Virus record (IMG/VR): IMGVR_UViG_3300031787_000074
Source of the DNA: an uncultured virus (IMG/VR IMGVR_UViG_3300031787_000074)
Lineage: Duplodnaviria; Heunggongvirae; Uroviricota; Caudoviricetes
DNA: 20,000 bases
Strand: one strand, 5' to 3'
Part shown: positions 1 through 20,000 of the stretch, piece by piece
How positions within the stretch are numbered: position 1 is the stretch's first letter
Layout: every line of letters begins with the position of its first letter
Notes under the pieces: model-generated
Database searches by the model: none
The model's input: the letters and a program-made list of their open reading frames with translations, nothing else
What the model was told of the DNA's origin: nothing
Made by a program: the position numbers and the translations under genes

Positions 1-1608
1 TAGTGTGTTTATAACTTTAGGAGTTACCCTGGTTCCTATCGTGTAGTGAAGGACAGGCCTTTCCAGGTACTTACCTTTTGCCGATTTTGTTGAAAGTTTC
101 TGGTGTCCTGGCCTTGGCTGAAAAGTTTTCTCAAATAGATCGTAAGGAATAATGTCGTCAGGCATGAACTCTTCCAACTCGTCATTTAGCCTGACGTGGT
201 TGATAAGCCCTCTAGATAGCATTTCAATATTTCTTCTATGCGCGCCCAGCCCAGCTTCTTTCATTGCGTCTCTAAAACTTAGAACAAACTGCCTTCTTCC
301 TTCGCCTATTCCCTTGAACTTTACAAATTCAGCAGGGTTTGGAAGGCCGTCACTAAGCACATCTCCAGCTTCTACCTCATCTCCTATTTTGAACTTCATC
401 CCGGCTTCTGGATTTATGTAGTGAGGAACTTGTTTGATAAATATGAACTGCCCGCCGCTAGGAGCTTCGCGAACAGATTCTATTTTTCCATCTACTTGAG
501 CATGAGTTGCCCAGTAAGGAGACTGCTTGGGACTTTGAATCAACTGATTTAGCTGCTTGAAGCCTGATATGGACTTACCGCCAGCAACTCCGCCGCTGTG
601 TTTTGAGCTCAGGGTTCCTTGTGAGATTGGTTCGCTGAGTGCTTGCACCGCTGCAATGCCCACAAAGTCCCCAACAGCAGGTAAACCGCCACGCTCACGA
701 ACTCCAACATCTCTTGCATACAAGCCTCCGTCAGGAGCTCCTGTGGCTACAGGACTTCTGACTACCATCTTGGTTATTCCACGGCTGAGAAGGTCTTTCA
801 TGACCTTTGGAGTTATCAGCGTGTTTTTCTTATAGCCGCCTACTGGAACAGACAGAAGTGATCCTTCGTTGTCAGAATCGTCAACATCAACAGGCATTCC
901 TCTGCTGTCCGTATGCCCAGGATCTTCAGCGTCTCTGGCTGTGACTATGAGCCTGTGCCCTAACTGGTTTAGCTGTTTGGAAAAGAACCCAGAGTGTTGA
1001 ACAGAGAACTTGGTATCAACAACTCCCTTTCTGGCTCCGAAGCTTCCAGCAAAATACTCTGCTGGAGTTAGGCCTTTGGAGAAAGAGTTCAAAACTGGAA
1101 TAGGAATAGGCCTGTCTCTGTGGTCTGTGTACAGTAAGTCTCCGCCTCTCAAAGACTTAAGGTTTGAAGGCTTGCCTCTTGAACCAGACAAAACCTGCAG
1201 AGCCAAAGGGCTGTGCTCAGCTTTGGACTCGTTAAGAATGGCGTCTTCTAGAGGCTTCTGATAACTAAGAACAGTTTTGACAATCTCGTCGTTCTTTTCT
1301 TTCTCTGGAAGGTTTCTTGCCTGTATGGCTTGTATTCTTTTCTTTATTTCTAAAGCAGCTTCCTTGCCTGATACTGACGTCCTTAGAGAATCAAGTCCGA
1401 AAGAGAATCCTCCGGTCTTGTAAGCTACATCTCTACCAACGTCAAATAACTTCTTAAGCACATCCCTGTAGCTGTCTGGATCCTTCTCAGCTATCTGCTG
1501 CATCACTTTTTGAACAGTCTTACCGTCAAGAATACGATTATAGTCTCGATAGCTCTGAGGAAGAGCTTCGTTAACTAGCAGCTGACCTACAGTAGTTCTG
1601 ATAGACAT
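1..1608 (-). CDS. rpoC: RNA polymerase beta'-like subunit, C-terminal half (3'-partial, 536 codons visible; absent from the ORF track)
   Basis: Manual translation: ATG at 1608 (TGATG overlap with the upstream stop), no stop down to position 1. Starts MSIRTTVGQLLVNEALP (cf. TTVGR..FNE.LP). Contains SGSRG (cf. SGARG), F-loop/bridge helix PVLNSFSKGLTPAEYFAGSFGARKGVVDTKFSVQHSGFFSKQL (cf. [37 protein letters not shown]) and trigger loop VGIAAVQALSEPISQGTLSSKHSGG (cf. [25 protein letters not shown]). Confidence 0.93.
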   Translation of the reverse strand, partial: MSIRTTVGQLLVNEALPQSYRDYNRILDGKTVQKVMQQIAEKDPDSYRDVLKKLFDVGRDVAYKTGGFSFGLDSLRTSVSGKEAALEIKKRIQAIQARNLPEKEKNDEIVKTVLSYQKPLEDAILNESKAEHSPLALQVLSGSRGKPSNLKSLRGGDLLYTDHRDRPIPIPVLNSFSKGLTPAEYFAGSFGARKGVVDTKFSVQHSGFFSKQLNQLGHRLIVTARDAEDPGHTDSRGMPVDVDDSDNEGSLLSVPVGGYKKNTLITPKVMKDLLSRGITKMVVRSPVATGAPDGGLYARDVGVRERGGLPAVGDFVGIAAVQALSEPISQGTLSSKHSGGVAGGKSISGFKQLNQLIQSPKQSPYWATHAQVDGKIESVREAPSGGQFIFIKQVPHYINPEAGMKFKIGDEVEAGDVLSDGLPNPAEFVKFKGIGEGRRQFVLSFRDAMKEAGLGAHRRNIEMLSRGLINHVRLNDELEEFMPDDIIPYDLFEKTFQPRPGHQKLSTKSAKGKYLERPVLHYTIGTRVTPKVINTL

Positions 1609-1832
1609 CAGATATTGATCTCTTGGACATCGACGTCTGATTTAATGCCAAGTTTAGAGAGAATAGAATCAAACAAACCATTATCGCCTTTCTTGGCCTT
1701 GTACAAAGTGATTGTCCCAGGAGCTAGCTCAAGAACAACGATAATAGGCTGGCCAAAGCTATCGCGAATGACCAGCCTAGTAGCTTCTGCTTCTCCTGAA
1801 GATTGAAAACCGTTGTGATATTCCAGCTTCAA
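1608..1832 (-). CDS. hypothetical protein, 74 aa
   Basis: TTG start preceded by AAGGGG SD-like sequence; stop overlaps the ATG of the beta'-C gene (translational coupling); fills the gap in the operon. Confidence 0.7.
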   Translation of the reverse strand: MKLEYHNGFQSSGEAEATRLVIRDSFGQPIIVVLELAPGTITLYKAKKGDNGLFDSILSKLGIKSDVDVQEINI

Positions 1833-1842
1833 AGCTTCCCCT

Positions 1843-2574
1843 TTATCGTTTGAATCCCATTGCGTTGATCAAGCAGCGAACAGCTTCGGTTTTGTCTTTC
1901 AAGCTTGCTTCCTTCTTTCCGCCGATTGGATCAATTGGCTTGATAGGAGGAATGCCGCCAACGCTGGCATCGCTTCCTTGTTCTTTTGAAGGAACAACCG
2001 GCTCTTGAGCGTCTTCGCCTTCTGGTGCGGGCTTATCGAGAATGTCGTAAGGAAGATTTAGGCCTAGGCTTTCGTACAGATTGATTAGCAACTTTTGTTG
2101 CCTTTCCATGTACTCAAGCATCTGCGCGGGATCTACCTTGCCGCCGCCTTTTGCCTTTGGCTTTGCTGCCCCGTCAGGAGAAGCTCCGCCGAGAGCTGCC
2201 TGCACGGCATCAGTAACCATTTTCTTTATGTCATCAGGAGAAGGGGCTGGAGGAGCGCCGCCCATAGCCGCTGGATCCATAGGCGGAGCACCGCCCATCA
2301 TAGCTGGGTCCATAGGAGGAGCTCCGCCGCCACCCATGGCAGCCATCATTGCTGGATCCATAGGAGGAGCACCGCCCATCATGGAAGGATCCATTGGTGG
2401 AGCGCCTGGAGGAGCAGCTCCCATCATGGCTGGGTCCATAGGAGGAGCTCCGCCGGCAGCGGCTTGGTCCATGGGAGGAGCGCCAGGAGGAGCGCCACCG
2501 CCAGGAGGAACAAAAGCGTTCTTCAGAGCCATAGCCCTTTTGACTTCTTGTAGCAAAATTGGATTGATAGGCAT
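1843..2574 (-). CDS. Pro/Gly/Met-rich repeat protein, about 243 aa, possible virion internal protein
   Basis: Track ORF 1843-2646 re-started at ATG 2574 (MPINPILL), which has GGAG upstream and avoids overlapping the previous gene's stop at 2594. Contains six GAPPMD repeats after a leader ending VKRAMALKNA. Confidence 0.8.
   Translation of the reverse strand: MPINPILLQEVKRAMALKNAFVPPGGGAPPGAPPMDQAAAGGAPPMDPAMMGAAPPGAPPMDPSMMGGAPPMDPAMMAAMGGGGAPPMDPAMMGGAPPMDPAAMGGAPPAPSPDDIKKMVTDAVQAALGGASPDGAAKPKAKGGGKVDPAQMLEYMERQQKLLINLYESLGLNLPYDILDKPAPEGEDAQEPVVPSKEQGSDASVGGIPPIKPIDPIGGKKEASLKDKTEAVRCLINAMGFKR
2248..2500 (-). repeat. coding repeat, six imperfect copies of GGAPPMDPAMM
   Basis: Translation GAPPMDQAAAGGAPPMDPAMMGAAPPGAPPMDPSMMGGAPPMDPAMMAAMGGGGAPPMDPAMMGGAPPMDPAAMGGAPP; codons vary between copies; boundaries approximate. 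Confidence 0.9.
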
Positions 2575-2593
2575 TGATAGCTCCGTATTTAAA

Positions 2594-3559
2594 TTATCTA
2601 GCTCCCGCGCCGATCGGCCCAGAATGACCTTTTTCAAACTTATCAAGAAAATGACTCATAGCCCAGTTGTATTCGTCGCTAGACAAAGGCCGTCCGTACA
2701 TTTGATTGAATACTTGCCGAGCTGGAGCCATAGGAACTCTGTTAGCGTAAGTCCTATTCCTTGGATCAGGAGCGCTGACGCCAGCATAGAAGTTAGGAAT
2801 CATAAAATCGTTATCTTTGTCCTGAAACTTGTCAGGCATCTTAGAGTTTTTAAGCGCAGAAGATTCAAACATCTGCCTATGAGGGTGATAGCTCAAAGAA
2901 GCCCCGTAGCTGCCTTCAGGAAAGGGCTGAGGCTCAAGAGTTGTGCCTCCGGCATTGACCGTAAGCATCTGAGACAAGTTCTTATTTGAGCTAGGAGCTC
3001 TTCTGCTCTGGCTAAGCATAGCCTTGTTGTTTGCTGAAGCCATCTCCTGAGGGCTCATGGTTGGAGGAACCATGTTTGGAACGCCTCTATTGCCTGCAGG
3101 GGCTACAGCCGAAGGAGGACGGCTTGGAGTGGTTACAGGCCTACTGGGCGTTGGAGCAGATATAGCTCCAGGAAGACTAGCTGGACTTACAGCTGGGCTA
3201 GGCGCTGCTGGAGTCATTCCTGGAACTGTGGGAGATACTGACCCAGGAAGGGCAGATGGAGTAACTGGAGGAGTAGGAGCTGGAAGGCTGCTACTCCTCA
3301 GATGGTTTTGCAAAGAAGCCAAGGCGTCTTGGTTCATCCTGGCCATATGTGCCACTTCTGCGTCTTGCCTAGCCCTGTGCGCGGTAGCACTGGATTGGGC
3401 ATTTCTAAGATGGCCAGCTATGGTGTTACCAGACACGTCGGTTAGAGGAGCCGTTGACGGAGTTGCCGGAGTGGCTGGAGTTCCTGAGTCTTGAGCCGCT
3501 TTAATCATGTGTTTGGCTAAAGCGGCCTTAACCATAATCAACTTAAATGTGTCAATCAC
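2594..3559 (-). CDS. Pro/Ala/Ser/Thr-rich hypothetical protein, 321 aa, with helical N-terminal leader
   Basis: GTG start with AAGGAG SD; leader MIDTFKLIMVKAALAKHMIKAA followed by low-complexity sequence; no Cys. Confidence 0.8.
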   Translation of the reverse strand: MIDTFKLIMVKAALAKHMIKAAQDSGTPATPATPSTAPLTDVSGNTIAGHLRNAQSSATAHRARQDAEVAHMARMNQDALASLQNHLRSSSLPAPTPPVTPSALPGSVSPTVPGMTPAAPSPAVSPASLPGAISAPTPSRPVTTPSRPPSAVAPAGNRGVPNMVPPTMSPQEMASANNKAMLSQSRRAPSSNKNLSQMLTVNAGGTTLEPQPFPEGSYGASLSYHPHRQMFESSALKNSKMPDKFQDKDNDFMIPNFYAGVSAPDPRNRTYANRVPMAPARQVFNQMYGRPLSSDEYNWAMSHFLDKFEKGHSGPIGAGAR

Positions 3560-3582
3560 GGCTTCTCCTTGTTCTTATAAAC

Positions 3583-4341
3583 TTATTTGTTTCTAGCTAC
3601 GCCTGGCATGTCTACGTTTAGCTTCGATGGAGACGTGCTAAAAGGAGTTTGAACTGGAGGGAAGACAGAGGATGGTCTAGAGGATGCTATGTTTCTCTGC
3701 CCTTGCGCAGCCCTGCCTTGCTGATAGTTGGCGTATTCATTTGGCATTATACTTCTGCCACCTGCAGCCACGCCCACAGGATTTTGAAAAGCCTCTGGGT
3801 CAATCAAAGCTGTTCCCATTCGGTCTAGCATGGGAGAACCGCTATTCTGCCCCAAAGAAGCTAAGTAGCCTAGAGGACTGGAGCTAGCGTGTTCCACGTG
3901 CTTCTTTATGGTCGCAGCGTTATCTATTGCTGACCTTCCAAAGTTAGCTGCGCCAGAAGCCGCGTTAGCCAGATAGCTTCCAGCATCTCTCATGCTGTTT
4001 CTTACATTCTCAGACCTAGTTAAGTCGTCTAGAGCTCTGGCCGTAGCGTAATCCGGAGCAGCCATGCTGGCTCCGGGTTTTAGACCTGTTACAAGCTGCC
4101 CTCTTCCTAGAGCCTGCTGTCTACGATTGGCTTGAATAGCCAAGTCGGCAGAAGTAGGACCAGAAGTAGGAGGCACTCTAGAAGAAGCTATAGCCTTGTC
4201 TACAGAAGTAGGAGCGGGCTTAGGCGCATTAACGCTAGCAGGGTTAGGTCCTTCTGGAGGAAAAACAGGAGGAGCGGCCTGTTTAATTAACTTAGCCGCT
4301 GCCTCTTTTACCTGCTGAATAGCCTTGTAGTTGAAAGCCAT
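3583..4341 (-). CDS. MAFNYKAI-leader protein 1, 252 aa
   Basis: ATG with GAGGA SD; N-terminus MAFNYKAIQQVKEAAAKLIKQAA shared with two neighbours; remainder Ala/Pro/Ser-rich. Confidence 0.85.
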   Translation of the reverse strand: MAFNYKAIQQVKEAAAKLIKQAAPPVFPPEGPNPASVNAPKPAPTSVDKAIASSRVPPTSGPTSADLAIQANRRQQALGRGQLVTGLKPGASMAAPDYATARALDDLTRSENVRNSMRDAGSYLANAASGAANFGRSAIDNAATIKKHVEHASSSPLGYLASLGQNSGSPMLDRMGTALIDPEAFQNPVGVAAGGRSIMPNEYANYQQGRAAQGQRNIASSRPSSVFPPVQTPFSTSPSKLNVDMPGVARNK

Positions 4342-4829
4342 CTTAGTATCCTCAGGGTTAGAGCTTTAAAAACTACTAAAAAATTACTTAGATAACCTAG
4401 CTTTAGGTAATCCGTACAACTCATCTTCTATATTTTTTGGCATGGGCAGCGCGAAATTGCTAGTTGGAACCGAATAAACTCCTCTTGGCTGGTAGTGCAT
4501 GGCTCTGCGAGCCATGTCCAGGGTAGTAGGCGATGTTAGCATGTTCTCTACTTGAGCTCTATCTTTACCTATGGACACCGCGTCTTCTTTTTTCCCAGAC
4601 TCCAAAGCTTTAATTTGCTTTTCTAAAAGTCTCTTAGCGAAGTCTTTTTGAATATCAATAAAGTTACTCATACCCTGGTCATTTGGATAATTTCTAGCGG
4701 CAAGACCGGCGTCTCCTGGAGCTCCTAGAGTAGATTTAAGTTTTACTGCTTCATTTTTATCTGCAGATAATTTAACTGCAGCTTTTTTAACTTGTTCAAT
4801 AGCCTTGTAGTTGAAAGCCATCTTAGTAT
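4318..4829. repeat. 32-bp exact direct repeat (4318-4349 and 4798-4829) covering the RBS spacer and codons MAFNYKAI
   Basis: aatagccttgtagttgaaagccatcttagtat occurs identically twice, 480 bp apart. Confidence 0.95.
4384..4821 (-). CDS. MAFNYKAI-leader protein 2, 145 aa
   Basis: ATG with AGGA SD; N-terminus MAFNYKAIEQVKKAAVKLSA. Confidence 0.85.
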   Translation of the reverse strand: MAFNYKAIEQVKKAAVKLSADKNEAVKLKSTLGAPGDAGLAARNYPNDQGMSNFIDIQKDFAKRLLEKQIKALESGKKEDAVSIGKDRAQVENMLTSPTTLDMARRAMHYQPRGVYSVPTSNFALPMPKNIEDELYGLPKARLSK

Positions 4830-4876
4830 TCCTAACTTTAAAACTGCGTTGGCTACGGAAGTAAAACGTATCTAGA

Positions 4877-4905
4877 AGTATAAACTGCTTTATAGCTTAC
4901 AGCAA
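4877..4905 (-). promoter_or_regulatory. sigma70-like promoter candidate TTGCTG-N17-TATACT
   Basis: Lies in the 123-bp intergenic gap upstream of ATG 4821; correct 17-bp spacing; AT-rich context makes a chance match possible. Confidence 0.4.
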
Positions 4906-4944
4906 TCAGCCTTTTACTAACAATTTTTACCTTGGCTTTTACCA

Positions 4945-5415
4945 TTAATACCCGTAGTTAACTTTACCTGTGCCAAGACTTGGCAAACCTACGCCTTTTA
5001 GAAAAGCTTGCCTATGCAAATTGTTGAATGGAGTTTTTGACAATTCTGTCGGTAACGTTTGATAAGTAGGGTATGGAACAATTTGACGATAGTTTTCTGA
5101 TCCAGGCATGGAGTATTGATACGGGTTTACGGGTTTATTTAGCGCCTCTGTACTGGCTGCGTGTCGCGTTTCTGGAAGATTTCTAGAGCCTTCCAACATT
5201 TTTTGTTTTCTTTCTGTTTCAGAAAGCCACTTTATGCCAGGCTCAGGCGCTTTTTGATAAGTAGGAAGACCTATAGCGTCTCCTCCGTAACCTGGAGGAA
5301 TAATTTGCGGTTTAGTCGCACTGCTGGCAGTAGGTTTTAAAGTAGCCGCAGATTCAGCAGCCCTTTTTGCCAGAGCTTCTTTAACCATTGAAATAGCTTT
5401 GTAATTAAAAGGCAT
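4945..5415 (-). CDS. MPFNYKAI-leader protein 3, 156 aa
   Basis: N-terminus MPFNYKAISMVKEALAKRAA; GGGTGA SD-like sequence supplied by the 12-bp repeat. Confidence 0.85.
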   Translation of the reverse strand: MPFNYKAISMVKEALAKRAAESAATLKPTASSATKPQIIPPGYGGDAIGLPTYQKAPEPGIKWLSETERKQKMLEGSRNLPETRHAASTEALNKPVNPYQYSMPGSENYRQIVPYPTYQTLPTELSKTPFNNLHRQAFLKGVGLPSLGTGKVNYGY

Positions 5416-5418
5416 GGC

Positions 5419-5464
5419 TTCACCCTAGTTTACACCCTAGTTTTCACCCTAGTTTTCACCCTAG
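5419..5464. repeat. 12-bp tandem repeat, about 3.8 copies (minus strand AACTAGGGTGAA)
   Basis: Plus strand ttcaccctagtt tacaccctagtt ttcaccctagtt ttcaccctag; occupies nearly the whole spacer and includes the TAG stop of the RNAP gene. Confidence 0.95.
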
Positions 5465-8400
5465 CTGTTTAGAATTACCACTTTCTGATCAGGCCCAATT
5501 TCTCCTGACTTATAAGCCCTGATTGCGTCGGCTTTTGTGGCAAAATACCGTTCTGGTTTATTAGACACGAAGGCCGTTGCCTGATAAAGACCGCCTTGAT
5601 ACTCGTTCTTTGGCAGCTGGTGAACTTTAAACGTTTTAGTTGATAGCAAATTCTTGCTAGGCAACATCTTTTCAAGAGCGTCTTTGACAGCTCCATCAGA
5701 CACAGGAACGTGGTAGTTCATGGTGTCGCCATCAAAGTCGGCACCAAATCCCGTAACCACAGCTGGGCATAACTGCATTGTTTCGTTGTCTACAAGTATT
5801 GGCTTGAAGGCCATAACGCCATACCTGTGAAGAACTGGAGCTCTGTTGATAATCACAGGCCTGTCGTTCATCTCTTGCTGCATAGCTGTCAGAGCTAACT
5901 TGTCTTTGTTCTGCACAAGTTCTGCTGCCCTAATCGGAGAAACTCCTTGTCTGGCCAGTCTTCTTACAATAAATGGTTTATATATTTCCCAAGCTTTGTT
6001 GATAGGAATGCCTACTTGATCTAAATCCAGATTGGCGTTTGGAGAGATAACGCCTCTGCCAACAACGTCTACTGTCGTGCTTAGCAACTTGCGCTGCATA
6101 ACAGAGAACTTAGGATTATCGCCAAACACGTATTTGAGAACGCCTTTGACTCCGCGCTCTTGGTTCTTGGGACTTATTGGATCACCAAGTCCCGTGACTG
6201 CTTTGAATGACCTATATAGAGCTAAGCGCTCATCTCCAACTTCGTTGGATATTCTTCTGGTTTCTTTCAAAGCCTGGTTAGCTTCAAAAGCTTCCTTATA
6301 CAGGTAATTAGGATCAGCCACCAAAGGTCTGTCGCCAGATCCCATAACAGCCACAGGGCGGAATATTGGTGGAAGGACTGGAATCTTGTCCATCATCCAA
6401 TCTTTTGGATGCATCTTCAGCCTTTGGGTGTGTTTCAGAATCGCCCAGCGCTTTAGAGCTGCATCTTTCGATGACTTCTTCGAGTTTCTCCATTCTGTTT
6501 CTGCTCTCTTTGTTGCCTCGTTGATGTCAATTCTTTCCAAAGACTTCTTTATAGCCTCTGGACCGGACATTTCATTGAACGTCTCTTTTCCAGAAAGTAT
6601 GGCGTTGAACCTGTTTTGAGTCAGGCCGAGTATTCTGCGAATAGGCTCTTCCATGACAGGATTGGGCAAAGGCTCAGCTAACTTTATGTAGCTCCATCTA
6701 TTTCCTCCATGTCCTCCTGTTGTTGATTCGTCAAACAATCCTCCCTTTATGGGCTTCAAGCCTTCCTTCCAGTCCACAGTTTCAGGAGAAGTTATTTCCC
6801 TTCCTGCAGCTAATTGGTCTATATCCTTGTTGGTCAAGGCCATGATCTGAATTCTTGGCCCAGTTCTTATTGGGTTTATGCCTGCAGACCTGAGTTGTTC
6901 AAAGAACTTATGGTATACGAGAGGAATTCTTGGCTCAGGAGGAGTTCTACCGGACATGAATGCTGCCCAGTAGTCTTGATTTTTTTGTCCTCTAATAGCT
7001 CCGGCATCGGTAAGAACATCCAAAGCTCCATGGGAAAGAAGGGCGTTGTTGTCAGCAAGGCTTACGCGCTTGCTTCCCATTGGACCGCCTTTAGCTGGAG
7101 ATTCCTCAGAGGTGTAAGAACCCAAACCACGACCAGAGCCTTTGCTCTCAGCCATGTGGTGCAACTTCATGAAGAAGCGATTTCCTGTGAATACGTCCCT
7201 TATTTTTGTGCTGTCTATTGGATCCAGTATGTCTTCCCTGTCAGACATGTTGTGCTTGGATAGTTCTTTTTTGGCGAACTCTATCATGTCTTCTATGTCA
7301 GAAAAGTCTTTTACGGCGTATCTCTTACCGTGCTTTTCAGCTATTTTTCCCAGAACCGCTTCTACCATCTGACCAGGATTTGTTCTGGAAATAATGCCCA
7401 AGGGGTTTACCAGAACCTCAAAAGGTCTTCCGTCGCTATCTACAGGCATGTGGTTGTCTGGAACTATCTCAGAAATTACTCCCTTGTCTCCATACCTTCC
7501 AGAAAGCTTGTCGCCAACCTGCATTTGGGAGTAGCTCTTTACTGTTACGACTACGCCTTTCCTGGTTTTCTCTACGTCTGTAACCACTCCTTTGTCGTGA
7601 TGATCCCAAGTTACAGTGCTGTCTGAAAAAGTAGGAGCCTTGCCTCTGGTTATTTGATTGTGCGCCAGCTCTTTCTGCTTAACCTGAAGAATAAGAGGAG
7701 TATCGGCATTTACTATTGAGCCCTTCTTGATTACTCCGTCCTCATCCATGTTGTCCAGGATGGCTTTGTCGTAAGTGCCTGGGAACATGGATATAAAAGT
7801 TTTCTTTCCGTATTTGGCGTTATCCTCAAACTCCACGTCGTTTTGATACATGTGTTCTGAGGAAAGACGCTTGGCAGCTGCCTCAGATATAACTATGGCG
7901 TCTTCAAAGTTCTGACCTTTATAGGGAATGTAGGCAGTACGCATGTTCAGACCCAAAGCCGTAGCGCCTTTGGCGTCTGTAAAGTTAGACCTGGCAATAA
8001 GAGTATTCTTCTTTACCATGTCTCCAGGCATAACTACAGGCGTGTTATGAAGATAAGTCTTTCTGTTGTAAGGAAGGTTGTCATGTATTTCTTTAACATG
8101 CACCTTGCCATCAGATCCCTTTATGTGAATCTCTTCTGGAGTAACCTTAACAACTTGTCCTTCTACGTCGGAATGTACCGCGCCCATGTACTTGCCGTAT
8201 CTTTCCTCATACGACTCGTCATCAGGACCTGGAACACCTGACTGAACAAACGGGGATTCGGCGTTTGCAATAGGCAAAGCCTGTGTAAGCATTCTCGCGC
8301 CCATCATCACGCGCTGGCCTTTGATGGTGGATTTGAGAGGAATCATGTTTACCAGAGGATTGAACGAGTCTTCCATGTGTGGAAGAACGTATTCAACCTG

Positions 8401-9897
8401 GTTCTTTGGAACATATTTGATTTTGCCGCTAACCAAAGCAGCCACTACGTTTGAATTCTTGTTTTCAAGCTCTTTGGGGAAAGCTATTACAGAGTCAGCA
8501 ATATCCTGAGGAGTTTTCCATACAGGTTTATTTCCATTCTTTACGTCAAGAAACTTGGCATAGACCTTTCCATCCTTACCTTTCATGGAAGATTGAGCCA
8601 AACGGCTATCAACACCTACCTTTAGAGATTCAGGAGTGAGTAGAGGATCGACATAACCAAAGTGAGAAGGCTGAACCGACCTGGCTTCGTCTGGAACAGC
8701 GTCCAGAGAAGGAATACCGCCTTCGCCAAGACGACTCATTCTGGTCAGCTGGCCAAGAATCTCAGCGTTGTTCACTTCTTCAGAAGGCTGTCCAAGTCCA
8801 GAACTTGTAATTGCAGCATTCAAATGCTTGCCAAGGAAGTTAGTTCCCAGAGGACTGAGATTATTTTTGAATGTGGCTTTCCACAGTAAAGGCCTCATGA
8901 CCTTGTAGGCTGAGCGCATCTTCTCAGAAAACAGATCCTCAGGACCCATGATCATCTGATAGGCCATGGCATCGCGGTCGTCTGGATCTGCTTCTCTCTT
9001 GTTTATGGCCACGATCTTCTTTGTGGCATCAATAATGGCATCTACTGACAAGTTTTTATACGGTTTGCCTAGTGTTCTTGACGTTACAACACCATCTAAA
9101 TGCATGTTCTCAAAGAAGTTACGAAGCTTTTGATACTTGCTTTCCTTGTCTCCTTCCTGATCAGCCTTCCTAAGAGTTCTTTGGATTAGCTTTTCCAGAA
9201 CCTGCGGGTCGTTTTGCCTGGCGTTTACTTCGTACAGCTCGTTTCCCCAAGAGTCTCTAAGCTGTTTGTCTGTTGCACCCATGGCTTTGAGCAGGGGAAA
9301 CAGAGGCATGGACGCTTGGCCCATGGAAACTTTGAATACGCCGCGAGCTGGATCTAGAGAATATCTGTGAGAAACACCTTTACCAGGAAGTACGTTAACG
9401 TGAGATTCTATTTCACCGTTCTGCTTTTCTCTCGTATATATCCCTGGGCGCAATCTGGCTTGGTTGGCAAGTGTGTATTCAACACCATTAAGTACGAAAG
9501 TGCCGCCATTTGTCATCTTGGGAATACGAGCCATGGTTATGGCTTTTTCATCAACGATGTTTCCCTGCGTGTCCTGAAGCTGCCATATGCCCTGAAGCCT
9601 TCTTTCAAGGCTTTCTTTTCTAAGAATGGCTTTCTTTCGTTCTTTTATGGAAGGAACTGGGCTATCTAGATAGCTAGCGCTGACTAGCTTTAGCTTATAC
9701 CTATTGTTTTCAAATACAGGAATTTCTTTCGTAGCGTTTAAAACACCGTCGTATATGGAGTTACGAGTCTTATCTATGTCAGAAAAAGACCGCATCTCTT
9801 CCTGAGGTTTATTTAAAATAGGCGCGGCCAGATTGCCAAGAACTCCTGCAGGCTTGTTTGGTCCCGCAGGAGTTCCACCGTCTAGGACAGAAGCCAT
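5461..9897 (-). CDS. rpoBC: DNA-directed RNA polymerase, beta subunit fused to the N-terminal catalytic half of beta' (1478 aa)
   Basis: Beta motifs in order: IPKMTNGGTFVLNG, EARSVQPSHFGYVDPLLTPE, RVMMGARMLTQALP, GQNFEDAIVISE, VGDKLSGRYGDKGVIS, LVNPLGIISRTNPGQ, FMKLHHM, QLRSAGIN. Then, with no stop, beta' motifs: ITSPETVD..KPIKGGLF, IPVLPPIFRP, RKLLSTTVDVVGRGVI, INRAPVLHRYG, GADFDGDTM (5725-5745 for GADFDGD). Confidence 0.96.
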   Translation of the reverse strand: MASVLDGGTPAGPNKPAGVLGNLAAPILNKPQEEMRSFSDIDKTRNSIYDGVLNATKEIPVFENNRYKLKLVSASYLDSPVPSIKERKKAILRKESLERRLQGIWQLQDTQGNIVDEKAITMARIPKMTNGGTFVLNGVEYTLANQARLRPGIYTREKQNGEIESHVNVLPGKGVSHRYSLDPARGVFKVSMGQASMPLFPLLKAMGATDKQLRDSWGNELYEVNARQNDPQVLEKLIQRTLRKADQEGDKESKYQKLRNFFENMHLDGVVTSRTLGKPYKNLSVDAIIDATKKIVAINKREADPDDRDAMAYQMIMGPEDLFSEKMRSAYKVMRPLLWKATFKNNLSPLGTNFLGKHLNAAITSSGLGQPSEEVNNAEILGQLTRMSRLGEGGIPSLDAVPDEARSVQPSHFGYVDPLLTPESLKVGVDSRLAQSSMKGKDGKVYAKFLDVKNGNKPVWKTPQDIADSVIAFPKELENKNSNVVAALVSGKIKYVPKNQVEYVLPHMEDSFNPLVNMIPLKSTIKGQRVMMGARMLTQALPIANAESPFVQSGVPGPDDESYEERYGKYMGAVHSDVEGQVVKVTPEEIHIKGSDGKVHVKEIHDNLPYNRKTYLHNTPVVMPGDMVKKNTLIARSNFTDAKGATALGLNMRTAYIPYKGQNFEDAIVISEAAAKRLSSEHMYQNDVEFEDNAKYGKKTFISMFPGTYDKAILDNMDEDGVIKKGSIVNADTPLILQVKQKELAHNQITRGKAPTFSDSTVTWDHHDKGVVTDVEKTRKGVVVTVKSYSQMQVGDKLSGRYGDKGVISEIVPDNHMPVDSDGRPFEVLVNPLGIISRTNPGQMVEAVLGKIAEKHGKRYAVKDFSDIEDMIEFAKKELSKHNMSDREDILDPIDSTKIRDVFTGNRFFMKLHHMAESKGSGRGLGSYTSEESPAKGGPMGSKRVSLADNNALLSHGALDVLTDAGAIRGQKNQDYWAAFMSGRTPPEPRIPLVYHKFFEQLRSAGINPIRTGPRIQIMALTNKDIDQLAAGREITSPETVDWKEGLKPIKGGLFDESTTGGHGGNRWSYIKLAEPLPNPVMEEPIRRILGLTQNRFNAILSGKETFNEMSGPEAIKKSLERIDINEATKRAETEWRNSKKSSKDAALKRWAILKHTQRLKMHPKDWMMDKIPVLPPIFRPVAVMGSGDRPLVADPNYLYKEAFEANQALKETRRISNEVGDERLALYRSFKAVTGLGDPISPKNQERGVKGVLKYVFGDNPKFSVMQRKLLSTTVDVVGRGVISPNANLDLDQVGIPINKAWEIYKPFIVRRLARQGVSPIRAAELVQNKDKLALTAMQQEMNDRPVIINRAPVLHRYGVMAFKPILVDNETMQLCPAVVTGFGADFDGDTMNYHVPVSDGAVKDALEKMLPSKNLLSTKTFKVHQLPKNEYQGGLYQATAFVSNKPERYFATKADAIRAYKSGEIGPDQKVVILNS

Positions 9898-9900
9898 GGC

Positions 9901-10917
9901 TTATTCCTCGTTATCTTCTTCCTGGTCTTCAGACTCTTCTACTTTTTTCTTCTTTTCATGAATTGGAAGAGCCATAAGCTTTGGAGGAGAAGCAGCCTGC
10001 CTTGCAGCAGCTCTTTCTCTGGCTATTTCGCCAAGGAGCTTGGAAGGATCTCTCTTGCTGAAGTATTCGTATCCAAGGGTTGTTCCAAGAACAGGCAAAC
10101 CAGCCAAAGCTGTAAGCCCCAAACCTCCAATTATGTTACCGGCGGATTCTAAAGAAGCTCTTGCCGCATTAGGGTCAATGCCTGCTTGCTCATAAATAGG
10201 GTCTGTAATCATTCTGCTAGTAGGTATAAGATCACCGCTAGCCTCAACTTTATAAGGAGGATATTTGCCAGATATCTTAAGAATGTACGCTAGCTTTTCC
10301 AGGTTGTACCGCAGCTCTTTGGCTACAGCCTTATCCCCAGAACCGGCTTTTTGCATCTTTAGTTTATCTTCGTCATAAGACTCCATTAGAGCCTTGTTGA
10401 ACTCTTCCGCCTCATCAGAAACATCTTCTTGAATCTGCTTGGCTCGTCTTGAGTTGAGAATGGCGTTGGTCAGCTTGTAGCCGCCATACATAGTTCCCAA
10501 GCCGCCAAGAATACTGAGAGGCCAGAAAATTGGCGCTTCTGCAGGGCTTTGAGCTTCGTGGCCGTGAAGCCAGCTAGCTTGTTCATATGGTTTTCTGTAA
10601 GCGCCTAAGGCCTTGGCTATAAGGTTGCTTTGCGTTGGCTTTTCAGAAGATGCCTTTATAGCTTCTTCTACAATCTGCTCTTTTACGTCCTCTTCAGGAT
10701 CTTCCGTATAGTTTGGATGGGGAAGAGGAAGTATTGATGGGGTTCTAGACCTGAACTTGGCTTTATTCTTTTTGAAGACGCCAGGAATTTCCTGAGCCGC
10801 TCTGGCTCCAGCTCCAAGCATGGCCGAACCTAGAAGAACTTGGCTCAGCAGTCCGTAAGTTTTATTTACCGCTCTGTTTGAATCATCAATTTCATCTGCT
10901 TTCTTTTCTTGAGACAT
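9901..10917 (-). CDS. hypothetical protein with three Gly-rich hydrophobic segments, about 338 aa
   Basis: Re-started at ATG 10917 (MSQEKKAD; GAGGAG SD; upstream stop at 10920). Segments LLSQVLLGSAMLGAGA, IFWPLSILGGLGTMYGGY, IIGGLGLTALAGLPVLGTTLGY; acidic tail. Confidence 0.82.
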   Translation of the reverse strand: MSQEKKADEIDDSNRAVNKTYGLLSQVLLGSAMLGAGARAAQEIPGVFKKNKAKFRSRTPSILPLPHPNYTEDPEEDVKEQIVEEAIKASSEKPTQSNLIAKALGAYRKPYEQASWLHGHEAQSPAEAPIFWPLSILGGLGTMYGGYKLTNAILNSRRAKQIQEDVSDEAEEFNKALMESYDEDKLKMQKAGSGDKAVAKELRYNLEKLAYILKISGKYPPYKVEASGDLIPTSRMITDPIYEQAGIDPNAARASLESAGNIIGGLGLTALAGLPVLGTTLGYEYFSKRDPSKLLGEIARERAAARQAASPPKLMALPIHEKKKKVEESEDQEEDNEE

Positions 10918-10919
10918 GG

Positions 10920-11264
10920 TCACAGTCTCCTCTGTACGTTCTTTGGAATGATGCCGACTACTTCGCCCCATTCCAGATGGATTCTTATCTCTTTACCGTC
11001 TTCAGATATGAGCTTAGTCCTATCTATTAGACGGAATAACCCGTTGACTATCTTATCCAGTATCTGTGTATATTCTTCTAAATCTGAAGAATTACCAAGA
11101 TCAAATACCTTCACATTCGCATTAACGCCGTGAGGTATATTGTCGTACTCTTCCTGAGTTAGATTTGGCGTGGCGTTTCCCATTAAGGGAAAGCCTTGCG
11201 AAGTTACAGCTCTTGAATCAGCGCGATACTTAGCCCCAACACCAAACTGATTCAGTATCTTCAT
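10920..11264 (-). CDS. hypothetical protein, 114 aa
   Basis: ATGA overlap with the upstream gene; fits operon packing. Confidence 0.78.
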   Translation of the reverse strand: MKILNQFGVGAKYRADSRAVTSQGFPLMGNATPNLTQEEYDNIPHGVNANVKVFDLGNSSDLEEYTQILDKIVNGLFRLIDRTKLISEDGKEIRIHLEWGEVVGIIPKNVQRRL

Positions 11265-14928: not shown

Positions 14929-17900
14929 ATGAGTCCTGCAAACAAGTCTAAGGACATTGTCAAGAAAATTGAGTCTAAATTCAAGGTCCAAAAGAGAGGT
15001 GGTGGATCAGAAGACTTCAAGGTCAGCAAGGTTCATAGCGCAATCAAGCGAGCTTTGGTGAATGGAGGTGGTTGGAATCCTGACGAAGCTGAGAAGGAAG
15101 CTGAGAATATCACTAACGCCGTTATCAGTCTTATCGTCAAGACTTTGACTAGTCCTGTTAATGTTGAAAGCATTCAGAATTTGGTAATCCAGCAGCTATG
15201 GGCTTTCAATCGCGACACTGAAGCTACTCATTACACCGTTTACAAGGAAGAAAGGAAGAAGTCGCGTGAGCTTGTTCCTGTGGATGAGAAGATCAAGGCG
15301 ATGATTGCTGATGACGCCAAGAACTTTGATGAGCCTATTCAGTACTTTCAGCTTATTACCAAGTTTGCACGATGGAATGAAAAAGCCAATAGGCGTGAAA
15401 CTTGGCAAGAAGTGTGTGATCGTGTGATTGGCTGGTTTCAAAAGCAGCCAAGACTTAAGAATGTTGAAGAAAGCCAATGGAATGAGTTGTTCAGCTATCT
15501 ATATAACTTGAAAGCAAGCCCTGCTATGCGGGTTGTTCAGATGGCTGGAGCTCCTTTGGACCGATGCAACGTTGGTGTTTTCAACTGCTCTTACTTGCCT
15601 ATCGTTGATTTGTTCTCCTTTGTCGAGCTTCTCTACATTCTTATGCAAGGCACAGGTGCTGGCTTCTCCGTTGAGTCTGCCAACATCGAGCATCTTCCTC
15701 GCATCAAGAGGCAAAAGCTTGCAGAGAAGACCAAGCACATTATTGAAGACTCCACAGAAGGTTGGTGCGATGCCTTACATATGGGGTTGAAGGCTTGGTT
15801 TGAGGGAGATGACATTGATTTTGACTTCAGCAGGATTAGACCTGCTGGGGCAAAGCTCAAGACCAAGGGCGGTAGAAGCTGCGGGCCTGAGCCTCTAAAG
15901 GATCTTCTGAAGTTTGCCCGCGATTTGATTCTCAAGCGCCAAGGCAAATACCTTACTGAGCTTGATTGCCACGACCTTGCTTGCATGGTTGGCAAGATTG
16001 TTCAGGTTGGAGGCGTAAGGCGTGCAGCTTTGATCTCTCTTTCTGACCTTAGCAGTTCAGAAATGCGTGAAGCCAAGAGTGGAGCATGGTGGCAAAACCA
16101 CGTTCACCGTTCCATGGCCAACAACTCTGCCGTGTATGACAGCAAACCAAGCGATGTTGCCTTCATGGACGAGTGGCTCAGCCTGGCAAAGTCTGGTTCT
16201 GGAGAGCGAGGTATCTTCAATCGCGATGGTGTTTTGAAGATGTTGCCCAAACGACGCAAGAAAGCCAAGTTTGGAACCAACCCTTGCTTTCATCCAGACA
16301 CAAGAATCTTCTGTAGCGAAGGTCTGATGCGCATTGTTGACCTTTACGAGCTAGGCATGGAGGTGAACGTAACTGTTGACAACCGTGAAAAGCCTGGAGA
16401 GATCGTTGTCGGTGTGGATTTGAAGGCAGCTAGCCAAGTTGAGCTGACTCAAACCCAGGCCAAGGTCTTCAGGCTGACAACGGAGCACGGTCATGAGATC
16501 GTTTGCACCGAAAATCATGAGTTTCCAACCGCCAAGGGGCGTAAGCAACTTAAAGATTTGAAGGCTGGAGACACTCTGTGCCTTCAATCTGACGAGGGTT
16601 TCTTCGGTCCTTACGGCGATTACAAGACAGGAGTGCTTCTTGGAGTGGTTGCCGGTGCTGGAAAGGTAGAAACCAACGACAGAAGGCTTAAAACCTTGTC
16701 CATAGAGGACTTCCTGTCTGACATGGACAACATGGACATGGTTGATGACTGCCTTACAGCCGTCGGAAAGCGCGGGAACAAGCACAAGACCGCAAATGTG
16801 CGCACCCAGCCCAAGATGTCTGGCATGGTTTTCACCAACAGAGTGGCGGAGATGGCTTATTTGAGCGATACGTCCGAGATGAAGACGTCAATTCCTGAAA
16901 CTGTAATGCGCGGAAAGCGTTCTATGGTCGCAGGTTACTTGTCGGCTGTCATGTCCAGCGCTTCCAGGGTCATTTCCACCCGTGAAAATGACGCTCAGAG
17001 CTTCATGATGCAGATTGACAGCCCGTCAAAGAGCTTCCTTCTTGGTTTGCAGATGCTTTTTGCCAACTTTGGCGTTGTTGCCAGGGTTGCAAAGAGGTCT
17101 GGCAAGACAAATAACATAGGAATGCTTCGTGACGTCAATCCAAGCAATGACGATAAGGTCAGTTTGATCCTAAACAGGACAAATTGCGCCATCGCCTATG
17201 AGAGGATTGGCGTTTCTGGTCTTCCTGGCTCCATCCTTAGTGATTTTCTTGGCAACACCAAGACCTGGATGGCTGACAGAGACGAGAAATACGTCACGAA
17301 GGTCAAGGAAATCCGTCCTGACGGCTTCTCTGACGTATATTGCCTCAACCAACCAGAGACTCACAACGTTATAGCCAACGGTGTGGTCGCTGGAAACTGC
17401 GCTGAGATCATTTTGAGGCCACACGAGTTCTGCAATCTCACAATTGTTATTGCAAGACCCAACGATACGGCTGAAACTCTTAAAGAGAAGATCCGCATTG
17501 CCACTATTTTCGGCACCATGCAAGCCAGCTGCACAAACTTCAAGTACATTCGCAATGAATGGCACAAGAACTGTGAAGAAGAGGCGTTGCTTGGCGTCGA
17601 TATCACTGGACAGATGGACTGTCCTCTTCTTAGACCTGACGCTGAAGGCCGTGAAAAGCTTCTTGAGGAGCTTAAGGGCGTGGTCGCCAAGACTAACGAG
17701 GAGTGGGCTAAGAAAATCGGCATCAACAGGGCTGCAGCCGACACTTGCGTCAAGCCTAGTGGCGATAGCAGCCAGTTCTACAACTGTGGTTCAGGCATAC
17801 ACGCCTGGTTTGGTAAGTTCTTCGTCAGAAGGGTTCGCGAACGTCGCGATAGCCCTGTGGCGAGAATGCTAATGGACCAGGGAGTGCCTTGGATGGTAGC

Positions 17901-18312
17901 TCCTGAAGACCCATCCTTGGTTTGTTTTGAGTTCCCACGTAAAGCGCCGGAAGGAGCGTTGACACGCCATGATCAAACCGCGATCGACCAACTGGAGAAT
18001 TGGCTTGTATGGAAGAAGCATTTTGCGGAGCACTCAGTGTCAGCCACTATATATGTGGAAGACGGAGAGTGGCTCGAAGCTGGTCTCTGGGTCCACAAGC
18101 ATTTCGATGAAGTTAGCGGCGTCAGCTTTCTGCCTAGGGATAACGGTACTTACACTGGTACTCCCTATGAGGAGATCACCGAAGAAGAGTACAACAAGAG
18201 ACTGGCTGCGCTGCCTGAGATCGATTGGTCCAAGCTGGTACGGTATGAAACCGAAGACATGACTGTGGGTTCTCAAACCTACGCATGTACTGCCGGCGGT
18301 TGTGATTTCTGA
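14929..18312 (+). CDS. nrdJ: class II adenosylcobalamin-dependent ribonucleotide reductase (monomeric RTPR type) with N-terminal ATP cone and an intein; 1127-aa precursor, about 756 aa spliced
   Basis: ATP cone VQKRGGGSEDFKVSKVHSAI...VESIQNLV; RRETWQEVCDRV; FNCSY; LMQGTGAGFSV; VGGVRRAALISLS; spliced TNP-CAEIIL..EFCNL; TCVKPSG; C-terminal CTAGGC shuttle pair with no class I tyrosine pair. Confidence 0.95.
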   Translation: MSPANKSKDIVKKIESKFKVQKRGGGSEDFKVSKVHSAIKRALVNGGGWNPDEAEKEAENITNAVISLIVKTLTSPVNVESIQNLVIQQLWAFNRDTEATHYTVYKEERKKSRELVPVDEKIKAMIADDAKNFDEPIQYFQLITKFARWNEKANRRETWQEVCDRVIGWFQKQPRLKNVEESQWNELFSYLYNLKASPAMRVVQMAGAPLDRCNVGVFNCSYLPIVDLFSFVELLYILMQGTGAGFSVESANIEHLPRIKRQKLAEKTKHIIEDSTEGWCDALHMGLKAWFEGDDIDFDFSRIRPAGAKLKTKGGRSCGPEPLKDLLKFARDLILKRQGKYLTELDCHDLACMVGKIVQVGGVRRAALISLSDLSSSEMREAKSGAWWQNHVHRSMANNSAVYDSKPSDVAFMDEWLSLAKSGSGERGIFNRDGVLKMLPKRRKKAKFGTNPCFHPDTRIFCSEGLMRIVDLYELGMEVNVTVDNREKPGEIVVGVDLKAASQVELTQTQAKVFRLTTEHGHEIVCTENHEFPTAKGRKQLKDLKAGDTLCLQSDEGFFGPYGDYKTGVLLGVVAGAGKVETNDRRLKTLSIEDFLSDMDNMDMVDDCLTAVGKRGNKHKTANVRTQPKMSGMVFTNRVAEMAYLSDTSEMKTSIPETVMRGKRSMVAGYLSAVMSSASRVISTRENDAQSFMMQIDSPSKSFLLGLQMLFANFGVVARVAKRSGKTNNIGMLRDVNPSNDDKVSLILNRTNCAIAYERIGVSGLPGSILSDFLGNTKTWMADRDEKYVTKVKEIRPDGFSDVYCLNQPETHNVIANGVVAGNCAEIILRPHEFCNLTIVIARPNDTAETLKEKIRIATIFGTMQASCTNFKYIRNEWHKNCEEEALLGVDITGQMDCPLLRPDAEGREKLLEELKGVVAKTNEEWAKKIGINRAAADTCVKPSGDSSQFYNCGSGIHAWFGKFFVRRVRERRDSPVARMLMDQGVPWMVAPEDPSLVCFEFPRKAPEGALTRHDQTAIDQLENWLVWKKHFAEHSVSATIYVEDGEWLEAGLWVHKHFDEVSGVSFLPRDNGTYTGTPYEEITEEEYNKRLAALPEIDWSKLVRYETEDMTVGSQTYACTAGGCDF
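16285..17397 (+). mobile_element. intein, 371 aa, with a degenerate LAGLIDADG homing endonuclease region
   Basis: Block A CFHPDTRI follows TNP; block B GHEIVCTENHEF; blocks F/G DVYCLNQPETHNVIANGVVAGN then extein Cys. Removal restores the active-site NPCAE. Confidence 0.95.
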
Positions 18313-19724: not shown

Positions 19725-19755
19725 AATATGACGTGTTTTTGTTATTAATTAAGTA
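19725..19755 (-). promoter_or_regulatory. bipartite promoter-like motif copy B
   Basis: TACTTAATTAAtaacaaaaacaCGTCATATT; same spacing as copy A. Confidence 0.55.
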
Positions 19756-19758
19756 TTG

Positions 19759-19803
19759 GCTGATGGCTAAAAAAATGAGCAGTTTTACGACCTGCTCAGG
19801 TCG
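19759..19803 (-). terminator. pseudoknot-capable terminator-like element with T7-AGCCATCAGC tail
   Basis: Minus strand CGACC-TGAGCA-GGTCG-TAAAAC-TGCTCA-TTTTTTT-AGCCATCAGC. Confidence 0.6.
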
Positions 19804-19814
19804 GGTCTATGAAA

Positions 19815-20000
19815 TTACTCCTTGCAGGGGTGGGCAACGTTACCACCCCAGTCGTCAACGAGAGTTGAAACATCGTCTTTGAAGAGAGGCCTGAAAGCCT
19901 CTCCCAAGAACCTTGAGGGTTTTCCTGTCCCGGTATCCCAGGAAAGGCAACTCATGTGGTCATGGGCCTCCACCTGGACCCACCGCCCCTCCATAGCCCA
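19815..20000 (-). CDS. hypothetical protein, C-terminal part (probably 5'-partial)
   Basis: Open frame of 61 codons WAMEGRWVQVEAHDHMSCLSWDTGTGKPSRFLGEAFRPLFKDDVSTLVDDWGGNVAHPCKE, TAA at 19815-19817, followed by a terminator-like element as in neighbouring units. Confidence 0.55.
   Translation of the reverse strand, partial: WAMEGRWVQVEAHDHMSCLSWDTGTGKPSRFLGEAFRPLFKDDVSTLVDDWGGNVAHPCKE

Follow-up and report, generated by a model that had tools for sequence, protein, structure and literature searches.

The 20,000-nucleotide stretch of DNA analysed here (the window) derives from an uncultured 190-kb lake phage of the class Caudoviricetes (IMG/VR record IMGVR_UViG_3300031787_000074), and carries on its minus strand two genes predicted to encode the large subunits of an RNA polymerase, divided between the chains in an unusual way. 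The first gene (5461..9897) is a single open frame of 1478 amino acids and comprises the whole of beta followed by the N-terminal catalytic part of beta'. The second (1..1608), which lies 3.85 kb downstream, encodes a separate C-terminal part (beta'-C) and runs past the first base of the window, so that 536 of its 634 codons are covered. Its full length was taken from a viral record of 189,675 bp, estimated to be 91% complete (G001), to which the window is identical apart from its final 257 bases.

Pfam domains of both subunits were recognised on the first chain, with Rpb2_3 at residues 373-437, Rpb2_6 (PF00562) at residues 582-929 (E 8.8e-53), Rpb1_1 at residues 1123-1214 and Rpb1_2 (PF00623) at residues 1338-1409 (E 4.1e-25), in agreement with a prediction made from the DNA alone (the original prediction) that beta is fused to beta'-N. 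For a residue map, the fused chain and beta'-C were compared by BLASTP with Salmonella RpoB and RpoC (E. coli numbering), taken from a bacterial contig filed among phage records. The beta-homologous part comprises residues 1-1008 (6874..9897, minus strand), where fused residues 104-217 correspond to beta 104-224, residues 283-782 to beta 420-939, and residues 781-1008 to beta 1045-1336 (of 1342). The inserts that E. coli has at beta 225-420 and 939-1045 are for the most part missing, and at the end of beta, fused residues 966-1008 match beta 1300-1336. The stretch GDK..GR.G.KGV, which we take to be the beta active-site motif, is present as VGDKLSGRYGDKGV.

According to the translation and the residue map, a linker of 10 residues, PIRTGPRIQI (residues 1009-1018; 6844..6873, minus strand), leads from the end of beta into beta'-N, and the position predicted for the junction, about 6855-6870, falls inside it. 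The beta'-N part (residues 1019-1478; 5464..6843, minus strand) is without the zinc-binding domain, fused residues 1019-1045 corresponding to beta' 22-48 and residues 1092-1465 to beta' 160-540. The catalytic loop GADFDGD, with the three aspartates of the NADFDGD motif, occupies residues 1385-1391 (5725..5745, minus strand), and the chain stops 87 residues past it (about 85 had been predicted), at about beta' residue 553. The map supports the placing of both double-psi barrels on one chain, the beta barrel with the GDK..GR.G.KGV region and the beta' barrel with GADFDGD.

Among solved structures, the beta part matched many phyla about equally well, with scores of 233 bits with the Clostridioides difficile subunit, 221 with that of a cyanobacterium, 212-214 with Thermus and 206 with E. 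coli, and the top beta' match was the cyanobacterial gamma subunit, where fused residues 1110-1467 correspond to gamma 186-549 of 624. A single-chain AlphaFold2 model of residues 781-1478 had a mean predicted local distance difference test score (pLDDT) of 70 and a predicted template modelling score (pTM) of 0.45, with a confident beta'-N part. In this model the junction is hairpin-like, with two short strands flanking five low-confidence turn residues, and Foldseek returned cyanobacterial and plastid RpoC1 and bacterial beta' as its best matches (E down to 3.4e-29).

The separate gene begins at position 1608 with MSIRTTVGQ, carries Pfam Rpb1_5, and is 634 amino acids long in G001. Its TTVGQ motif (residues 5-9; 1582..1596, minus strand), equivalent to TTVGR 572-576 of Salmonella beta', marks the split. 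Residues 127-340 correspond to beta' 714-939 and residues 409-537 to beta' 1201-1324. The beta' region matched in this way presumably holds the bridge helix and the trigger loop (E. coli numbering), and with Rpb1_5 and the match to beta' 714-939 the region of both elements is carried by beta'-C. By this alignment the second chain is the remainder of beta', starting at about E. coli residue 568. Taken together, the two chains cover beta and beta' from one end to the other, except for the large enterobacterial inserts, which are missing, and about 15 residues at the cut that neither chain accounts for. The division foreseen in the original prediction, with both barrels on one chain and the bridge helix and trigger loop on another that resumes at MSIRTTVGQ (1608) after six unrelated genes, is consistent with this map and with the six same-strand open reading frames (ORFs) described below. 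Residue 24 of beta'-C matches residue 12 of cyanobacterial RpoC2. Together with the RpoC1 match, this places the two cuts on either side of the motif, that of the phage immediately before TTVGQ and that of cyanobacteria immediately after, as had also been suggested for the latter.

The 1101-base stretch around the junction was found whole in 19 DNA runs from 12 freshwater or lake studies. It is spanned without a single difference by two independent contigs, one of 13,309 nt from run X15 and one of 12,674 nt from run X2, which answers the concern over misassembly raised with the original prediction. In the RNA-library run X20 the junction is overlain by one contig of 258 nt (depth 2), too little to prove transcription. 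Conservation of the fused protein was judged from the best 120 homologues listed, from several sources and with 52-77% identity. PF00562 and PF00623 lie on one chain in 119 of these 120, the sole exception being a 1350-amino-acid protein on a 7-kb contig. The other 119 are 1436-1554 amino acids long, or 1785-2195 where inteins are inserted, and the catalytic motif [GNA][AM]DFDGD is kept in 119 of 121 fused proteins. For beta'-C, the N-terminus lies at the same place in all of the best 150 representatives listed (45-56% identity). In all of ten related loci, eight from IMG/VR plus those of phages Arash and D69, the fused gene precedes beta'-C on the same strand, at a distance of 0.64-5.3 kb. 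The fused chains of G001, Arash and D69 stop in one and the same alignment column, and single high-scoring segment pairs span the junction (G001 941-1104 against Arash 938-1104 at 35% identity, and against D69 953-1101 at 38%). From the shared junction and the shared chain end, both the fusion and the split predate the separation of these phages. The layout is frequently met in public data, cultured phages included, and the clade is large and common in lakes, its members being annotated merely as 'beta subunit'.

Several observations concern inserts in these genes. Relatives carry inteins or other inserts at fused-chain positions of about 424 and 942, and the polymerase genes of relatives are insert hot spots, with an in-frame insert of about 344 codons at fused residue 424 in two loci (L028 and L030) and a 759-bp insert with stops at fused residue 942 in a third (L029), where the open frame is just 599 amino acids. 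Recurrent inserts are also found in the beta'-C of relatives, at positions about 203-210 and 334, and Vibrio phages D181 and D148 have a homing endonuclease within the fused gene. Apart from inserts, 107 of the best 150 beta'-C relatives (P0123-P0272) have a C-terminal extension of 200-1156 amino acids; these extensions are rich in Ala, Pro, Gly and Gln, belong to several unrelated families and are mostly without a Pfam domain, a few having DUF5661 or DUF4269.

Other subunits of a bacterial polymerase were searched for in G001 and four relatives. Neither alpha (PF01000) nor omega (PF01192) was found in any of these 5 records, with 14 of 14 controls positive. Every one of the 5 records has one Rpb1_2 locus, and Pfam scans of 180 G001 ORFs revealed no second polymerase. 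Judged from these searches, the product of the two genes is predicted to be the catalytic core of the sole RNA polymerase that the phage possesses, a single-copy set in each genome searched.

The zinc ligands of beta' are, as we assume, Cys70/72/85/88 and Cys814/888/895/898. The Cys70/72/85/88 region is deleted in the alignment of the fused chain, which has one cysteine (C1377), and beta'-C has none. The polymerase thus contains 1 cysteine in 2112 residues, as compared with 1.33% cysteine in the G001 proteome, and both beta' zinc sites are lost. Cysteine is similarly rare in 105 insert-free fused homologues (none in 96, one in 8 and two in 1), and is absent from 51 of 51 relatives of a candidate sigma factor.

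This candidate, a protein of 274-289 amino acids encoded at 53572-54441 of G001, matched Pfam Sigma70_r3 at 28.3 bits. Its family profile matches SigA structures over regions 2-4 (E 3.5e-13), the AlphaFold2 model (mean pLDDT 76) has three helical domains, and the top 50 Foldseek matches to this model were all sigma chains. All 5 related records contain a member of the family, the one in Arash being gp10, the virion sigma. From the profile and the model the G001 protein is predicted to be a sigma70-family factor. A single-family search of G001 with Sigma70_r2 gave no match, and at a threshold of 1e-3 BLASTP found no counterpart in G001 of either gp196, the second Arash sigma, or the D69 sigma. 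The profile of the capsid protein Gp23 had no match in G001, and none in any control either. As a separate observation, sigma70-type promoter-like sites are scarce in window positions 1-11000, with 2 found compared to 11.3 +/- 3.5 in shuffled sequences.

A gene for an SNF2 helicase is located at 86016-87506 of G001, three genes downstream of beta'-C. A homologue follows immediately after beta'-C in Arash, and none was found in the D69 locus. In relative P0220, beta'-C, a NUDIX domain and an SNF2 helicase are joined in one protein of 1774 amino acids, and this single-chain arrangement suggests that the helicase encoded near beta'-C is linked to the polymerase.

The closest described systems are those of Salmonella phage Arash (OQ632216.1) and the Vibrio phages D69, D181 and D148. 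Arash has the same layout, with gp206 (1525 amino acids) and gp216 (606 amino acids) nine genes apart and gp10 as sigma; the three Vibrio phages share the fused-and-split layout, and D69 has the same gene pair. Arash and D69 have the junction, the chain end and the sigma family in common with the lake phage, and 98% of the length of the fused protein aligns with gp206 at 30% identity. At 21-38% identity, G001 also has its portal, helicase and structural proteins in common with Arash and D69, as well as the two polymerase chains. On the other hand, the polymerases of the Arash and Vibrio phages are only 26-30% identical to the one described here and have the catalytic loop AADYDGD instead of GADFDGD, and the genes between the two polymerase genes are different and, in Arash, lie partly on the opposite strand. 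In the accessible text of the Arash paper the proteins are named beta and beta', and their fusion is not mentioned (PMC10585845). According to the same source, mass spectrometry of Arash virions gave 3516 spectra for gp206, the highest number of all proteins and above that of the major capsid protein, with a peptide coverage of 100%, together with 1210 spectra for gp216, 467 for gp10 and 1148 for the helicase gp217.

Each of the other known rearrangements of the large subunits agrees with the present one in part. The phiKZ and AR9 enzymes, as covered in the parts of two reports available to us (PMC7598289, PMC7824862), are likewise two-barrel phage polymerases without alpha and omega, have a beta' cut after the barrel and exist in a virion form. 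However, their beta comes in 2-3 pieces and is unfused, there are two sets per genome, and no sigma is recognisable (PMC7598289, same limit), whereas the lake phage has a whole, fused beta, one set, and a predicted sigma70-family factor. In Helicobacter and Wolbachia the C-terminus of beta is joined in frame to the N-terminus of beta', as described in the accessible portion of PMC7483510. By description these are cellular enzymes in which both subunits are whole and alpha and omega are kept; in the phage, beta' stops at about residue 553, and the difference from the Helicobacter and Wolbachia fusion drawn in the original prediction is thereby upheld. Cyanobacterial and plastid RpoC1 and RpoC2 result from a cut of beta' in the same linker past the catalytic barrel, and the phage beta'-N part has its best matches, in sequence as in fold, among RpoC1 chains. 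In cyanobacteria, however, the cut follows the TTxGR motif and beta is separate, whereas the phage cut lies 4 residues before TTVGQ and beta is fused; moreover, the cyanobacterial and the fused groups are not joined in a free tree.

The mReC phages resemble the present one in being metagenomic tailed phages with bacterial-like, deeply branching beta and beta' (PMC7481178, Weinheimer and Aylward 2020, the sections at hand). They differ in that their beta and beta' are separate, mostly adjacent and often present in two sets (in the rows considered, 11 of 118 and 11 of 116 in supplement file 4). The filter described in the accessible part of PMC7481178 required NADxDGD and at least 800 amino acids per subunit; since GADFDGD fails NADxDGD, it would leave out the phage studied here. 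Both barrels on one polypeptide, delivered with the virion, are also known from the crAss-like phages and Thermus phage P23-45, as far as the available descriptions go, but those enzymes are too divergent for beta and beta' profiles, whereas every Pfam beta and beta' domain searched is recognisable here.

In the accessible literature on phage RNA polymerases, bioRxiv supplements lying outside the search, we found no account of beta fused to beta'-N with beta'-C on its own. The layout is not described in the available text of the Arash paper (PMC10585845), Sokolova 2020, Iyer 2021 or Weinheimer and Aylward 2020, nor in that of a 2026 jumbo-phage review and a 2026 freshwater jumbo-phage paper. 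As to novelty, which the original prediction left undecided, the layout itself is common in public data, but no published description of it was found in this literature. The 'moraphage' is, in the accessible account, a different lineage without a polymerase (PMC12619734).

With bacterial beta and beta' the fused protein has about 26-30% identity whatever the phylum. A scan for rpoC in one genome per species found only ordinary bacterial rpoC, and within the barrel region the best 80 bacterial matches reach 35-44% identity; they are spread over many phyla, 3 of the top 5 being cyanobacteria. Trees of the beta'-N region (41 and 38 rows, a quick IQ-TREE search with LG+C20), with 29 bacteria and nine fused sequences, united the nine fused sequences in one clade on a long stem (support of 99 and 100 in the Shimodaira-Hasegawa-like approximate likelihood ratio test, SH-aLRT), with all 29 bacteria opposite and the attachment near the candidate phyla radiation (CPR) and Chloroflexota. 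Long branches make the deep placement uncertain. In these comparisons no donor can be identified and nothing points to a recent capture, and the capture from a bacterium suggested originally is not borne out, since the identity is equally low across phyla and the fused clade falls outside the 29 bacteria. An independent fusion and split, also proposed, is only partly testable; a clade of fused sequences and cyanobacteria is not rejected by the approximately unbiased (AU) test (p-AU 0.088), and other phage polymerases are also cut in this inter-domain region. Thus beta'-N and beta'-C are five ORFs apart in Ralstonia phage RP13, and Acinetobacter phage Ab1-TPeters has a separate beta'-C; beta' is unsplit in Yersinia phage GN1 and Rhizobium phage RHph_Y65. 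In a further locus (L052, on a contig of an Acidobacteriota metagenome-assembled genome) a stop-to-stop frame with the beta' catalytic motif extends over at least 2564 amino acids, far beyond a normal beta'.

The comparisons of the encoded proteins establish a conserved, single-copy, bacterial-type two-barrel core that has been re-cut into two chains, accompanied by a phage gene of the sigma70 family and lacking alpha and omega genes and zinc sites. In our interpretation the two chains probably form the core of the phage's sole polymerase, a sigma-dependent holoenzyme carried in the virion, in which a covalent link replaces the alpha platform. Chain 1 comprises all of beta, the 10-residue linker and beta' to about residue 553, and carries both barrels and the Mg-binding GADFDGD loop. 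The beta-beta' tether would take over the assembly role of the absent alpha dimer. The phage sigma would direct this core to phage promoters, and the holoenzyme, packed in the virion, would enter the host with the DNA and start phage transcription. Packaging is inferred from Arash, whose virions contain the homologues of all three proteins in abundance. The split may have arisen once, in the ancestor of the clade, at a surface linker attracting mobile DNA, as suggested by the inserts that relatives carry at fused positions of about 424 and 942 and beta'-C positions of about 203-210 and 334, and cargo would have accumulated there since.

Several points weigh against this interpretation. Packaging is deduced from a single proteomics study of a relative just 26-30% identical, and in the accessible text of that study the authors also permit carry-over of, or contamination by, abundant proteins (PMC10585845). 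The sigma gene is about 37 kb distant and its single-sequence score is merely 28.3 bits. The missing alpha and omega genes are compatible with the use of host subunits, and it is possible that a gene was missed, since the record is estimated to be 91% complete. Finally, the model of residues 781-1478 is only moderate in quality, and long branches and a quick search weaken the tree.

An enzyme of the same two chains might instead be made after infection and serve middle and late genes, the host polymerase reading the early ones. The carry-over of highly expressed enzymes offered as an alternative by the Arash authors (PMC10585845, accessible text) would agree with this, as would the single polymerase set per genome, compared to the virion and non-virion sets of phiKZ-type phages, and the lack of recognised head or tail genes flanking the polymerase genes of the window. 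We nevertheless regard it as unlikely, though far from negligible, in view of the top position of gp206 among the Arash virion spectra as given in the available data, above the major capsid protein and in the company of sigma and helicase; a near-total loss of cysteine in polymerase and sigma would also be hard to explain for a purely cytoplasmic enzyme, and sigma70-type promoter matches are depleted. That the core borrows the alpha dimer and omega of the host, the fusion being a neutral accident and not a substitute for an assembly platform, would fit with the absence of both genes from the phage records and with beta and beta' parts that are otherwise bacterial-type over their whole length. 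This seems improbable, however, given that an identity of about 26-30% to any bacterial beta or beta' casts doubt on the conservation of alpha contacts, that the fusion is retained in 119 of the best 120 homologues listed, and that jumbo-phage polymerases, in the parts of the reports at hand, lack these subunits and do not stably bind those of the host (PMC13282480, PMC7598289).

Two further explanations question the separate chains themselves. Post-translational joining of the beta' halves by a split intein, or RNA trans-splicing, into one beta-beta' chain could be imagined from the abundance of inteins and other inserts in these genes of relatives. But beta' homology extends to within about 15 residues of both free ends, so that there is no room for split-intein halves, gp206 and gp216 of Arash were detected as separate proteins (accessible part of the Arash data), and terminator-like hairpins directly follow the fused gene in Arash and D69, all of which makes such rejoining highly improbable. 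For an artefact of assembly or sequencing, or a decaying gene, no supporting point was found, and with contigs from two other runs that cross the junction without differences, the whole stretch in 19 runs of 12 studies, the same layout in complete genomes of cultured phages, the full peptide coverage of gp206 (in the data available) and the catalytic motif in 119 of 121 fused proteins, the probability of this explanation is practically nil.

Returning to the virion-carried, sigma-dependent enzyme, a bolder form of it would be a self-sufficient holoenzyme of three proteins (beta-beta'N, beta'-C and sigma) that does without alpha, omega, zinc and cysteine, travels in the capsid, is ejected along with the DNA, and stems from a lineage that parted very early from the cellular polymerases, the covalent beta-beta' link having made the alpha platform dispensable; this we put forward tentatively, at somewhat less than an even chance.

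The boundaries of RNA polymerase subunits are among the most conserved gene borders in biology, and natural exceptions reveal which contacts are structurally negotiable. Here fusion and split, otherwise known only separately, are combined in one enzyme, which also lacks the alpha platform, omega and the two zinc sites and is thus a candidate for a minimal polymerase of the bacterial type. Delivery with the virion together with its own sigma, if true, would be a third phage route for importing transcription besides the N4-type and phiKZ-type enzymes, and the cultured relatives (Salmonella phage Arash and the Vibrio phages) make the enzyme testable now.

Between the two polymerase genes (1608..5415) lie six ORFs of 74, 267, 321, 252, 145 and 156 amino acids, all on the minus strand like the polymerase genes and none with a match in Pfam or PHROG. 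All but the ORF of 74 amino acids are rich in Pro and Ala. Among the 10 related loci, the ORFs of 74 and 267 amino acids recur in 5, close relatives only, and the ORF of 252 amino acids in 1; the intervening ORFs are variable cargo separating the polymerase genes. The 267-amino-acid protein (window 1843-2646, minus strand) contains imperfect repeats of the type GGAPPMDPAMM, with a DNA repeat spacing of 33, 45 and 81 nt, is predicted to be disordered (Atlas pLDDT 0.46), and is encoded directly upstream of beta'-C in five close relatives. An Atlas search with this protein returned nothing beyond unnamed viral clusters below 0.9, and the model was of low confidence. The consecutive ORFs of 252, 145 and 156 amino acids (window 3583-5415, minus strand) have a common N-terminus of 17-18 residues, M[AP]FNYKAI..VK.A, followed by divergent sequences rich in Pro, Ala and Ser. 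This N-terminus, which is reminiscent of a putative shared targeting or processing tag, occurs in only these three ORFs of the 190-kb record, and one related locus (L026) has a single copy at the same place.

A 12-nt repeat in four copies (CTAGGGTGAAAA on the minus strand; 5419..5464) begins within the TAG stop of the fused gene, so that four TAG codons stand in frame ahead of the ATG of the next ORF, which is in the same frame. On the minus strand of G001 (189,675 bp) the repeat unit occurs at this site only, and the relatives are without the repeat. Recoding of TAG at the tandem repeat was ruled out, as TAG is the stop of 38 of 207 ORFs.

At the other end of the locus, the stop of beta'-C overlaps (ATGA) the start of an 836-amino-acid ORF with an N-terminal DUF6321 (G001 88496-91006), just outside the first base of the window. 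Window positions 19744-20000, the 257 bases that differ from G001, have 198 mismatches in an ungapped comparison, so that the window stems from another, near-identical assembly. PHROG matches were obtained for only 12 of 96 G001 proteins, and Rfam and transfer RNA scans of the window found nothing. A further gene of the window, on the plus strand (14929-18312), encodes a ribonucleotide reductase of 1127 amino acids (PHROG 367) with an ATP-cone and a class II insertion domain; an intein with a LAGLIDADG-type endonuclease (LAGLIDADG_3; Pfam Intein_splicing at 495-823) interrupts the reductase.

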